From: Mobula hypostoma
Taxonomy: Eukaryota
Direction: 5' to 3'
DNA: 64,000 nucleotides
Assembly (NCBI RefSeq): GCF_963921235.1
Contig: NC_086097.1
Span: 26,662,001-26,726,000, forward strand
Shown here: positions 19,434-51,075 of the stretch, piece by piece
Layout: every line of letters begins with the position of its first letter
Position numbering within the stretch: the first letter of the stretch is position 1
Translations under genes and position numbers: made by a program
Notes under the pieces: generated by a model
Database searches by the model: none
What the model was told of the DNA's origin: nothing
What the model saw: the letters and a program-made list of their open reading frames with translations, nothing else

Positions 19434-20285
19434 CAGTGGGATGCAGAAGTTTGGGCACCCCTGGTCAATATTTCTGTTTCTGTGAATAGCTAAGCGAATA
19501 AAAGATGACCTGATTTCCAAAAGGCATAAAGTTAAAGATGACACATTTCTTTCATATTTTAAGCAAGAAACATTTTTTTATTTCCGTCTTTTACAGTTTC
19601 AAAATAACAAAAAAGGAAAAGGGCCCAAAGCAAAAGTTTGGGCACCCTGCATAGCGGTACTTAGTAACACCCCCTGGGCAAGTATCACAGCTTGTAAATG
19701 TTTTTTGTAGCCAGCTAGGAGTCTTACAATTCTTGTCTGGGGGATTTTCACCGATTCTTCCTTGCAAAAGGCTTCTAGTTCTGAGATTCTTGGGCCTTTT
19801 TGCATGCACTGCGCTTTTGAGGTCTATCCAGAGATTCTCAATGATGTTTAGGTCGGGGGACTATGAGGGCCATGGAAAAACCTTTAGCTTGCGCCTCTTG
19901 AGGTAGTCCATTGTGGATTTTGCGGTGTGTTTAGGATCATTATCCTGTTGTAGAAACCATCCTCTTTTTATCTTCGGCTTTTTTACAGACAGTGTGCTGT
20001 TTGCTTCCAGAATTTGCTGGTATTTAATTGAATTCATTCTTCCCTCTACCAGTAAATGTTCCCCGTGCCACTGGCTGCAACACAAGCCCAAAGCATGATC
20101 GATCCACCCCTGTGTTTAACAGTTGGAGAGGGGTTCTTTTCATGAAATTCTGCACCCGTTTTTCTCCAAACATACCTTTGCTCATTGCAGCCAAAAAGTT
20201 CAAAGGAACATCTGAACAAGCCTGATGCATTTTGGAGACACGTCCTGTGGACTGATGAAGTTAAAATAGAACTTTTTGGCCGCAA
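19434..20285 (-). mobile_element. Tc1 (DD34E, IR/DR type) 3' half, defective
   Basis: TA+CAGTGGGATGCAGAAGTTTGGGCACCC end; WTDEVKIELF, KHRGGSIMLWAC and QDNDPKH transposase motifs. Confidence 0.85.
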
Positions 20286-28966: not shown

Positions 28967-29045
28967 ATTAATGCAAATATCTAAGCAGCCAAATCGTGTG
29001 GCAGCAACTCAATGCATCACAGCATGCAAATATGGTCAAGGGGTT

Positions 29046-29765
29046 GGTGAAGTGAGGCAACACTTCACTTCTGAGTCTGTTGGGGTCATCTATTGCATCC
29101 GGTGCTCCCGGTGCGGCCTCCTCTACATCGGAGAAACCCGACGCAGATTGGGGGACCGCTTCGTCGAGCACCTCCGCTCCGTCCGCCAAAACAGACAGGA
29201 TCTCCCAGTAGCCACCTACTTCAACTCTGCTTCCCACTCCCATTCAGACATGTCCATACATGGCCTCCTCTACTGCCATGATGAGGCTAAACTTAGGTTG
29301 GAGGAGCAACACCTCATATACCGTCTAGGTAGTCTCCAGCCCCTTGGTATGAACATAGAATTCTCCAACTTCCGGTAATTCCCTCCCCCTCCCTTCCCCT
29401 ATCCCTATATCACTCTGTCCCCTCCCCCAGCTGCCCACCACCTCCCTCTTGGTTCCACCTCCTACTACCCATTGTGTTTTCCCCTATTCCTTCTTCACCT
29501 TTCCTGCCTATCACCTCCCTGCTTCCCCTCCCCCAGCCCTTTATCTTTCCCCCTACTGGTTTTTCACCTGGAACCTACCAGCCTTCTCCTTCCCACCCTC
29601 CCCCCACCTTCTTTATAGGGCCTCTGCCCCTTCCCTCTTCAGTCCTGACGAAGGGTTCCGGCCCGAAACGTCGACCGATCTTTTCCACGGATGCTGCCCG
29701 ACCTGCTGAGTTCCTCCAGCGTGTTGTGAGTGTTGCTTTGACTCCAACATCTGCAGATTATTTTG
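29046..29765 (+). mobile_element. 5'-truncated Penelope-like element (GIY-YIG endonuclease C-terminus plus terminal repeat) with 13-bp TSD
   Basis: VIYCIRCSRCGLLYIGETRRRLGDRFVEH...LEEQHLIYRLGSLQPLGMN; TSD TGGTCAAGGGGTT at 29033-29045 and 29766-29778. Confidence 0.9.
29640..29677 (+). ncRNA. Minimal type I hammerhead ribozyme motif with complete core
   Basis: Stem I GTC/GAC, CTGACGA 29645-29651, stem II GGGT-tccg-GCCC, GAAA 29665-29668, palindromic ACGT stem III, GUC cleavage triplet ending at 29672. Confidence 0.75.
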
Positions 29766-30854
29766 TGGTCAAGGGGTTCAGTTGTTGTTCAGACCAAACA
29801 TCAAAATGAGGAAGAAATGTGAACTAAGTGACTTTGACTGTGGAATGATTGTTGGTGCCAGATGGGGTGGTTTGAGTATCTCAGAAATAGCTGATCTCCT
29901 GATATTTTCATGCACAACTCTCAAGTTGATTAAGAGAATGGTAAAAAAAAACAAAACAAACATCCAGTGAGTGGCATTTCTGTGGGTGAAAACACCTTGT
30001 TGATGAGAGAGGTCAGAGGAGAATGGCCGGACTGGTTCAAGCTGAAAAGGAGGTGACAGTAACTCAAACAACCACACATTACAACAGTGGTGTGCACAAG
30101 AGCATCTCTGAATGCACAACACATAGAATCTTGAAGTGGATGGGCTACAGTAAAAGACCATGAACATACACTCAGTGCTATTGGGTGTACTGTATATAAA
30201 AATAAAGTTTGAAGTATGGATATAGAATTAATGTGCATAAATACCAGCATGTATTTACAATGTAAACAGCATTATAAAAAGTGGTTTAATGTGTTTATAG
30301 TGACTGAGGCAACAAATTGAGAGGGGTGAGGGACTGACTAGAATGGTTGATCAAATTAACCGCCGGGGTGGGGGGGGGCAGGAAGAGAGAAAAGAAACTT
30401 TTAAGATCGTGTGAACTTTTTGTTTTCAATCATCCTGGAGCGCTTTCCAGAAGGGAGCTTTTGGAAAAGGCAGCTTGCAGAGTGGACAGTGTCCACAATG
30501 AGTGCAAAACAACAAATTTGACAGCATTTGTCAGTGATAATAAACCCGATTCTAATCCTTAAAGCTCTGTGCTCCTCCCACATTTAGTTGTGAGTTGCAG
30601 GTAAAGCAGGAAAAGGTTTGAAAGTGTTCCTCATGTGAAATGCCCTACAGGAACAATTGACGTGCCAGTGATTGGTGTTCAGTTTCCGTTGCTGTCTGTA
30701 ATCAGTTTCTACATTCTCCCTGTGACCGTGAAAGTTTCCTCTGGGTGCTCTGCTTCCCTCTCACATTCCAAAGACAAGCTAAGGTTAGTAACTTATGGAC
30801 ATGCCACACTGGTGCTGGAAGCATGGCAACACTTGTGGGCTGCCCCCCAACATA

Positions 30855-32221
30855 CAGTGGCATGCAAAAGTTTGGGCACCCCGGTCAAAATTTCTGTTAC
30901 TGTGAATAGCTAAGCGAATAAAAGATGACCTGATTTCCAAAAGGCATAAAGTTAAAGATGACACATTTCTTTAATATTTTAAGCAAGAAAACTTTTTTTT
31001 ATTTCCATCTTTTACAGTAAAGGGCCCGAAGCAAAAGTTTGGGCACCCCGCATGGCAGTACTTAGTAACACCTCCTTTGGCAAGTATCACAGCTTGTGAA
31101 TGCTTTTTGTAGCCAGCTAGGAGTCTTACAATTCTTGTTTGGGGGATTTTCGCCCATTCTTCCTTGCAAAAGGCTTCCAGTTCTGTGAGATTCTTGGGCC
31201 TTTTTGCATGCACTGCTCTTTTGAGGTCTATCCACAGATTTTCGATGATGTTTAGGTCGGGGGACTATGAGGGCCATGGCAAAACCATCAGCTTGTGCCC
31301 CTTGAGGTAGTCCACCATGGATTTTGAGGTGTGCTTAGGATCATTATCCTGTTGTAGAAGCCATCCTCTTTTCATCTTCAGCTTTTTTACAGACGGTGTG
31401 ATGTTTGCTTCCAGAAATTGCTGGTATTTAATTGAATTAATTCTTCCCTCTACCAGTGAAATGTTCCCTGTGCCACTGGCTGCAACACAAGCCCAAAGCA
31501 TGATTGATCCACCCCCGTGCTTAACAGTTGGAGAGGTGTTCTTTTCATGAAATTCTGCACCCTTTTTTCTCCAAACATACCTTTGCTCATTGCGGCCAAA
31601 AAGTTCTATTTTAACTTCATCGTTCCACAGGACTTGTTTCCAAAATGCATCAGACTTGTTTAGATGTTCCTTTGCAAACTTCTGATGCTGAAAAAAGCCG
31701 AAGATGAAAAGAGGATGGCTTCCACGACAGGATAATGATCCTAAACACACTTCAAAATCCACAATGGACTACCTCAAGAGGCGCAAGCTGAAGGTTTTGC
31801 CATGGCCCTCACAGTCCCCCGACCTGAACATCATCGGAAATCTGTGGATAGACCTCAAGAGAGCAGTGCATGCAAGACGGCCCAAGAATCTCACAGAACT
31901 AGAAGCCTTTTGCAAGGAAGAATGGGTGAAAATCCCCCAAACAAGAATTGAAAGACTCTTAGCTGGCTACAGAAAGCGTTTACAAGCTGTGATACTTGCC
32001 AAAGGGGGTGTTACTAAGTACTGACCATGCAGGGTGCCCAAACTTTTGCTTTGGGCCCTTTTCCTTTTTTGTTATTTTGAAACTGTAAAAGATGGAAATA
32101 AAAAAATAATCTTGCTTAAAATATTGAAGAAATGTGTCATCTTTAACTTTATGCCTTTTGGAAATCAGTTCATCTTTACTCGAAATTTTGACCGGGGTGC
32201 CCAAACTTTTGCATGCCACTG
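30855..32221. mobile_element. Tc1 fold-back element: two transposase 3' halves in inverted orientation, inserted in a V-SINE
   Basis: Both ends are CAGTGGCATGCAAAAGTTTGGGCACCCCGGTCAAAATTTC with TA TSD; minus-strand transposase 31690->31060 and plus-strand transposase 31691->32024. Confidence 0.9.
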
Positions 32222-49869: not shown

Positions 49870-51075
49870 TTACACTCAGACTACAGTTCTCTTCTACTTC
49901 ATGCACGTCTACCCTCACCCCATCCACTCGCCACCCCACCAGGGAGAGGGTTCCTCTTGTCCTCACCCACCACCCCACCAGCTTCCGCGTCTAGCACATA
50001 TTTCTTCGTAACCTCTACCATCTCCAATGTAATTCCCCCCCTCCCCTCACTTTCTGCAGGGATTGCTTCATATGCGACTCCCTTGTCCCTTCGTTCCTCC
50101 CCACCGATCTCCCTCCTGGCAAGCGGAATAAGTGCCACACCTGCCCCTACACCGCCTCCCTCACTACCATTCAGGACCCCAAACAGGTGAGGCGACACTT
50201 CACCTGTGAGTCTGTTGGGGTCGTCTGCTGTATGGAAACATAGAAAACCTACAGCACAATACAGGCCCTTTGGCCCACAAAGCTAGGCATGTCCTTACCT
50301 AAGAAATTACCCATAGTCCTCTATTTTTCTGAGCTCCATATACCTGTCCAGGAGTCTCTTAAAAGACCCTATCATATGCGGTGGTCCTGGTGTGGCCTCT
50401 TGTATATTGGTGAGATCTGACGTAGATTAGGAGACTGCTTCTCTGAACACCTATGCACCGTTTGCCGGAAGAAGCAGGATCTCCCAGGGGCCACCCATTT
50501 TAATTTCACTTCCTATTCCCATTCCGTTATGTCAGTCCATGGCCTCCTCTACTGCTGTGATGAGACCACACCCAGATTGGAGGAGCAACACCTTATATTC
50601 CATCTGGGTAGCCTCCATCCTGATGGCATGAGCATCGACTTCTCTAACCTAGTATTTGCCCACCCCCTCTCCTTCACTATTCCCATTTCCTTCTCTCACC
50701 TTATCTCCTTGCCTGCCCATCACCTCCCTCTGGTGCTCCTCCCCCTTCCCTTTATTCCATGGCCTTCTGTCCTTTCCTGTCAGACTCCCACTTCTCCTGT
50801 CCTTTGTCTCTTTCACCCATCAACTTCCCAGCTCTTTACTTCACCCCTCCCACTTTCCCGGTTTCACCGATCACCTTGTGTTTCTCCCTCCCCTCTCCCC
50901 ACCTTTTAACTTTACTCCTCATCCTTTTTTTTCCTCCAGACTTGCTGAAGGGTTTTGGCCCGAAATGTCGACTGTTTACTCTTTTCCATAGACGCTGCCT
51001 GGCCTGCTGAGTTCCTCCAGCGTTTTGTGTGCGACTTTGATTTCCTGCATCTGTAGATTTTCTCTTCTTTGTGTT
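49870..51075 (+). mobile_element. Penelope-like element fragment interrupted by a short CR1 3' end (~50235-50372)
   Basis: MSVHGLLYCCDETTPRLEEQHLIFHLGSLHPDGMSIDFS, then the terminal repeat with a decayed hammerhead at ~50938-50975. Confidence 0.8.

Follow-up and report, generated by a model that had tools for sequence, protein, structure and literature searches.

Minimal type I hammerhead ribozymes (min-HHRs) have been described from metazoan Penelope-like elements (PLEs) by Cervera and De la Pena (2014, PMC4209133). In the portions of that paper drawn on here, these motifs carry an additional nucleotide, located after position 9 and before 10.1, a G10.1−C11.1 pair and a palindromic segment at 15.2−16.2. 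Among fishes, they have been seen in elements of the Xena, Poseidon and Neptune groups, where most are solitary copies in truncated elements, and the aligned rows include motifs with a 3-bp helix I or II, with helices down to 2−3 bp. The min-HHR monomer was inactive, while the dimer and trimer were weakly active. PLE hammerheads with a palindromic, very short stem III that cleave as dimers were also reported by Lunse, Weinberg and Breaker (2017), as summarized in a review (PMC6765202).

Biochemical data are available for the Poseidon element of Anolis carolinensis (PAc; Frangieh et al. 2024, PMC11167929). According to the sections of that study used here, the PAc ribozyme cuts only in the presence of protein, insertion in vitro proceeds without it, and its cut site had no RNA-seq ends. 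Reverse transcription starts 111−118 nt into an ORF that begins at stem II, and the PAc protein, which is predicted to dimerise, required the initial 172 nt of the ORF. Related type I hammerhead repeats derived from PLEs are found in the non-LTR retrozymes of animals, including the one chondrichthyan sampled; of the frog retrozyme dimers, one of nine cut (bioRxiv 10.64898/2026.07.22.740005, in part). Domesticated hammerheads are depicted in Fig. 4 of PMC6155905.

The window, i.e. the whole 64,000-nucleotide stretch of Mobula hypostoma DNA that was analysed, contains a motif of this kind within a short PLE insertion. The coordinates of the insertion and of the parts of the motif are listed in Table 1.

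Table 1. Features of the Penelope-like insertion and its hammerhead motif (window coordinates)
Feature	Position	Strand	Remarks
Target-site duplication, left copy	29033..29045	+	13 bp
5'-truncated Penelope-like insertion, putatively Neptune-type	29046..29765	+	720 bp, one hammerhead
C-terminal GIY-YIG endonuclease remnant	29046..29378	+	PF01541, E 3e-5, above cut-off
Pyrimidine-rich 3' UTR/pseudo-LTR (pLTR) sequence	29379..29639	+	29618−29633 predicted to pair with core and stem II
Minimal type I hammerhead (min-HHR) motif	29640..29677	+	read from sequence; fits the Fig. S3 consensus of PMC4209133
Stem I, 5' arm	29640..29644	+	pairs with 29673−29677; A29641·C29676 mismatch
Core C3−A9, CUGACGA	29645..29651	+	extra A at 29652, between positions 9 and 10.1
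Stem-loop II	29653..29664	+	29653−29655 with 29662−29664, three G−C pairs; U·G pair; 4-nt loop
GAAA box (G12−A15.1)	29665..29668	+	
ACGU palindrome	29668..29671	+	helix III possible only between two copies
Segment ending in U16.1 and C17	29665..29672	+	GUC triplet, predicted to be cut after C29672
Stem I, 3' arm	29673..29677	+	
Element sequence downstream of ribozyme to insertion 3' end	29678..29765	+	
Target-site duplication, right copy	29766..29778	+	13 bp

The insertion is a young, little-decayed, truncated Penelope-like copy, and its CpG observed/expected ratio of 0.49, compared to 0.33 for the window, is as expected of a young copy. Its coding part is restricted to the GIY-YIG remnant, and RT sequence is absent from the 720 bp. 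The best relatives were predicted proteins of Hypanus sabinus and Mobula hypostoma with 76−88% identity (23 matches among 325 candidates), the remnant being 88% identical to a Hypanus sabinus protein. At one position the remnant reads Tyr where five of five close relatives have kept His. Upstream RT-like sequence and a PF26215 tag were present in the close relatives P0002, P0004 and P0006, and the loss of a PLE-type RT from the focal copy is explained by its 5' truncation. All five close relatives that were checked have the CX2-5CxxC linker, in a region lying outside the truncated focal copy. This linker between RT and endonuclease marks Neptune and Nematis elements (PMC8557442, in part). The comparison points to a Neptune-type PLE, with the linker of the relatives fitting Neptune or Nematis alike. 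The endonuclease sequence of the element also turns up in a number of predicted Hypanus sabinus isoforms that bear host-gene names (P0002, P0005 and P0022−P0024), which probably represent chimeric annotations or exonised repeats.

The insertion sits inside a further repeat of high copy number, and loose ends at 29766 read the empty site of that repeat in four of four sequencing runs. The interrupted host repeat, with its nested insertions, spans 28216−30180 of the window and is presumably Tc1-like, a label for which three checks gave no confirmation. It also carries a 705-bp reverse insertion (28262−28966) with a 6-bp duplication, which we take to be CR1-like.

The hammerhead lies 267 nt downstream of the GIY-YIG stop codon, on the same strand and inside the insertion flanked by the target-site duplications. 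All 11 scored core bases were present, N17 is a C, and the G10.1−C11.1 pair corresponds to G29653−C29664. Stem I consists of three contiguous base pairs followed by the A29641·C29676 mismatch and two more pairs, and a U29639−A29678 pair can extend it. Helix II has 3−4 bp. Closure of stem III in cis is impossible, as it would leave a loop of 0 or 2 nt. The motif at 29640−29677 is a genuine copy of a Penelope-like min-HHR. The first-pass annotation had described it as a single hammerhead in a Penelope terminal repeat, with every core nucleotide, one extra A and a palindromic stem III that cannot close in cis and so needs a second copy. Each of these points agrees with the layout found here: 11 of 11 core bases with A29652, one ribozyme between the duplications, a pLTR position next to a GIY-YIG remnant, a fit to the published consensus, and a helix III that forms only between copies, the published monomers being inactive (PMC4209133, in part). 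Its description of the motif as ‘intact’, with short stems I and II, holds for the core but goes too far for stem I, whose mismatch had gone unmentioned.

Further copies of the family were sought in the window with an iterated profile, which identified 18 related stretches at E≤0.5, 15 of them at E<0.001. Fourteen were scored, and the four matching only downstream of the ribozyme were left out. All 11 core bases were present in two of the 14, and the ACGU palindrome together with a cleavable triplet only in the focal stretch, in a scoring where several old copies align poorly. In the second copy with a full 11-base core (2566), position 17 is a G and the palindrome is disrupted. Apart from the focal stretch, the 13 scored stretches included no competent partner, and when the focal copy was folded with four other + strand window copies, no double-hammerhead fold was obtained. 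Of seven other copies inspected for their upstream flank, three (2561, 15257 and 49745) start at or within the 5' arm of stem I and have no element-like pyrimidine tract upstream; such starts at the 5' edge of the ribozyme might mark where transcription begins or where the RT stops. The family is also represented by a longer relic of greater age at 49929−51059 (+), interrupted near 50236−50375, and an inverted copy of the ribozyme region (49626−49745, −) lies just upstream of it. Inverted 5' copies are a known PLE arrangement (PMC8557442, in part).

Variation across the family was assessed in sequencing runs. Part of the surrounding 2.8 kb was found in 20 of the 23 runs listed, and four of these (X1, X12, X16 and X17) were compared over 301 bases with a likeness cut-off of 85%. 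In X1, 58,056 contigs matched the 301 bases, host-repeat flank included, which makes this a very abundant family. The variant shares that follow are unphased and weighted by summed contig depth, a poor measure of variant share; they cover 41 of 52 variants, and the placement of contigs by likeness favours the focal copy's own variants. Among the variants listed, the large, subfamily-level differences were in loop II (48−50% in X1), at 29639 (46%) and at 29676. For position 29676, T accounted for 52% of X1, 95% of X12, 64% of X16 and 62% of X17. The mismatched C accounted for up to 48% of the depth in X1, a DNA run, 36−38% in X16 and X17 and about 5% in X12, and no compensating change at 29641 was seen among the variants listed. 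Differences at G8, G12 and the palindrome, again among the variants listed, amounted to 5−9% in X1 and were located in CpG dinucleotides. C11.1 and C17 likewise belong to CpGs, and T was present there in 23 and 27%, respectively. A lower share of G8-to-A in the runs guessed to be RNA (0.9% compared to 4.6−7.3%) was dropped as a signal, as other CpG sites were lower too. In some lineages, the mismatch of stem I mostly characterises a subfamily and is not private decay; it may therefore be tolerated. A lineage-restricted subfamily with a weakened stem I seems to have been amplified.

The folding of the focal copy was then predicted with nearest-neighbour energies, which leave out hammerhead tertiary contacts and protein chaperoning and therefore indicate direction only. 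The active double-hammerhead form had a predicted energy of −14.3 kcal/mol. This is 14.2 kcal/mol higher than the best co-fold and 10.4 kcal/mol higher than two free monomers. For the variant with U at 29676, the predicted active dimer was again 14.2 above the best co-fold and 9.9 above two monomers; the predicted penalty of the mismatch relative to this variant was 4.7 kcal/mol per stem. For the monomer on its own, the preferred predicted fold lies 4.0 kcal/mol lower than the open core and has the core paired to the palindrome and C17. When the native flanks were included, the predictions paired 29618−29633 with the core and with stem II at probabilities of up to 0.98, leaving stem II a probability of 0.01−0.05 in context and a predicted opening cost of 4.4−5.5 kcal/mol. 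When the upstream flank was shuffled (n=300), 20% of the shuffles masked the motif equally and 57% left stem II below 0.1. The pyrimidine-rich composition alone thus gives such masking, and the idea that the upstream hairpin is a designed off-switch was rejected. In these predictions, the core is masked in its context and the two-molecule active form is unfavourable.

A scheme for the family can be postulated. The min-HHR would belong to a Neptune-type Penelope-like retroelement of stingray-like fishes and lie in the pLTR of the donor element. Where copies are transcribed in tandem, the ACGU palindromes of two of them may base-pair and their stem I arms be exchanged. This would give a double hammerhead whose strands are joined by both stems I together with the palindrome of 4 bp, and in which the GUC of each copy would be cut by the core of the other. 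The element's own protein probably helps cleavage, as published for other PLEs. At the focal locus, 93 nt of element sequence are retained past the cut site, and we infer from this that the template RNA was uncut, or had been re-ligated, at this position. Its reverse transcription would have stopped early, producing the 5' truncation and leaving the 13-bp target duplication.

The focal copy itself is very probably an inert passenger that undergoes no cleavage in vivo at this locus and is not a conditional switch. We infer this inactivity from its being solo, from the want of a competent neighbour in the window, from the mismatch in stem I and from a core predicted to prefer other pairings.

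An alternative is conditional cleavage in trans, in which a dimer of the element's protein would hold two family RNAs so that a read-through RNA is cut by the core of the other copy. The first-pass annotation had likewise suggested a conditional cleavage site in read-through transcripts. The complete core and palindrome and the abundance of family sequence in two runs guessed to be RNA are consistent with this, as is the Anolis PLE, whose ribozyme is protein-assisted and whose protein is predicted to dimerise (PMC11167929, in part). However, the two strands would be joined by only a 3−5-bp stem I and a 4-bp helix III in a form predicted to lie some 10 kcal/mol uphill of two monomers, flanking sequence is predicted to mask stem II, and the window stretches scored include no competent partner. 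The 93 nt past the cut site also fall short of the first 172 nt of the ORF needed by the Anolis protein, and the sections of PMC11167929 used here report no RNA-seq ends at the Anolis site. For the focal locus, no + strand transcript was seen: no locus-specific transcript was found in the four runs, of which two are ‘RNA’ by guess and all are kept as contigs. No contig piece bridging the 3' junction of the insertion was present among the 32 listed of over 108,000, and given this small part the result is no evidence of silence. An opposite-strand joint at 29673 in one X16 contig, among the 15 joints listed of 63, was treated as chance. Conditional cleavage in trans at this site is therefore unlikely on the evidence against it, and the suggestion of the first-pass annotation found no support. 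Its general form, that any + strand transcript through a young copy is cut in trans when the element's protein pairs family RNAs, is very doubtful. If true, it would mean that a retroelement protein switches on dispersed cleavage sites in host RNAs, drawn from a very large pool of half-ribozymes with identical palindromes in rays.

A second alternative, in which the host has co-opted the copy for use as a regulatory ribozyme in an intron or 3' region, could draw on the focal copy being the only complete one among the 14 window stretches scored. Against this, that completeness is accounted for by the young age of the copy, as indicated by its CpG ratio, and the insertion lies within another repeat. 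A Pfam search of all 219 stop-to-stop frames of at least 75 aa, which would miss short exons, revealed no host-gene domain. The matches were to RT, DDE/Tc3 transposase and GIY-YIG domains, with three to ALKBH8_N and one weak match to Flp1_like below cut-off; the ALKBH8_N matches are presumably retroelement-derived. Domesticated hammerheads have loop-loop contacts and a stable helix III, neither of which is present in the focal motif. Co-option is extremely improbable. Among the other frames, the longest in the window (407 codons, 60978−62201, +) has an RVT_1 domain and is a LINE remnant. DDE transposase fragments were seen in an inverted repeat at 31056−31388 and 31691−32023 (333 nt, 92% complementary, 302 nt apart), with a third copy of that repeat at 19782−20056.

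The search against Rfam that the first-pass annotation had proposed as a check gave no hammerhead match in the window at gathering score, and at E≤10 on 501 bases it returned three matches, none to a hammerhead. An exact hammerhead pattern had no matches in metagenome contigs. The 38-mer folded no better than its shuffles (z=−0.43). In 10 window copies, decayed and with two out of register, the stems were paired in 71% of cells compared to 20−43% for slid controls, and two-sided changes were found at one pair compared to 2.2 in shuffles. Variants within the stems in the sequencing runs were one-sided only, and unphased. A generic min-HHR descriptor matched two sites in the window, of which one, the focal motif, had a palindromic helix III, while 300 dinucleotide shuffles gave a mean of 0.04 descriptor sites and 0.007 with a palindromic helix III per window. 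A chance match to a short descriptor, which the short stems, the Rfam and folding results and the lack of covariation above shuffles would allow, was ruled out by sequence context and has next to no probability, given the 0.007 palindromic sites expected per shuffled window, the location within the pLTR of a PLE and the agreement with the consensus in the literature.

What is seen here, namely the layout with its additional A and its palindrome, the need for a dimer and the occurrence of solo copies in truncated elements, was already published in 2014, and the focal copy adds an example from a ray. No published description of this ray family was found in literature searches directed at sharks and rays; most subscription papers and Repbase were outside the search, so novelty is not implied. 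The apparent amplification of a subfamily whose stem I is mismatched agrees with the view in the literature that transposition does not require cleavage; together with its matched counterpart, this subfamily offers a natural test pair. The focal copy is no easier a test of PLE hammerhead function than the published copies.

Compared to the retrozymes, which are tandem non-coding repeats, the focal motif is a single truncated copy with endonuclease coding sequence (bioRxiv 10.64898/2026.07.22.740005, in part). With the short-stem-III dimer hammerheads it shares a palindromic, very short stem III (PMC6765202, in part). As in PAc, the hammerhead is located in a pLTR and genomic copies keep both sides of the cut site (PMC11167929, in part). 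Counted from where stem II starts, the focal insertion ends after 113 nt, at 29765, which falls in the 111−118 nt at which reverse transcription starts in PAc, a parallel from a single copy and in another clade. The two differ in clade, the Cys-rich linker of the relatives pointing to a Neptune/Nematis type, and activity has been measured in PAc, whereas the focal motif is known from its sequence. In layout, the focal motif resembles the min-HHRs of PMC4209133, as far as the rows and supplement text of that source go. Shared with them are the type I topology, the CUGANGAH core with an extra nucleotide, the G10.1−C11.1 pair, the palindromic 15.2−16.2 segment without loop 3, the short helix I, the U-rich 5' flank and the occurrence as a solo copy in a truncated element. 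The tick and sea urchin rows have the CUGACGAA core and the C-G-U-C junction in common with the focal motif. The focal motif differs from the rows of that source in its host, a batoid ray, the supplement text searched containing no mention of shark, skate or Callorhinchus. It also differs in its helix II of 3−4 bp, which is shorter than in most rows, and in the A·C mismatch in helix I that characterises its subfamily.
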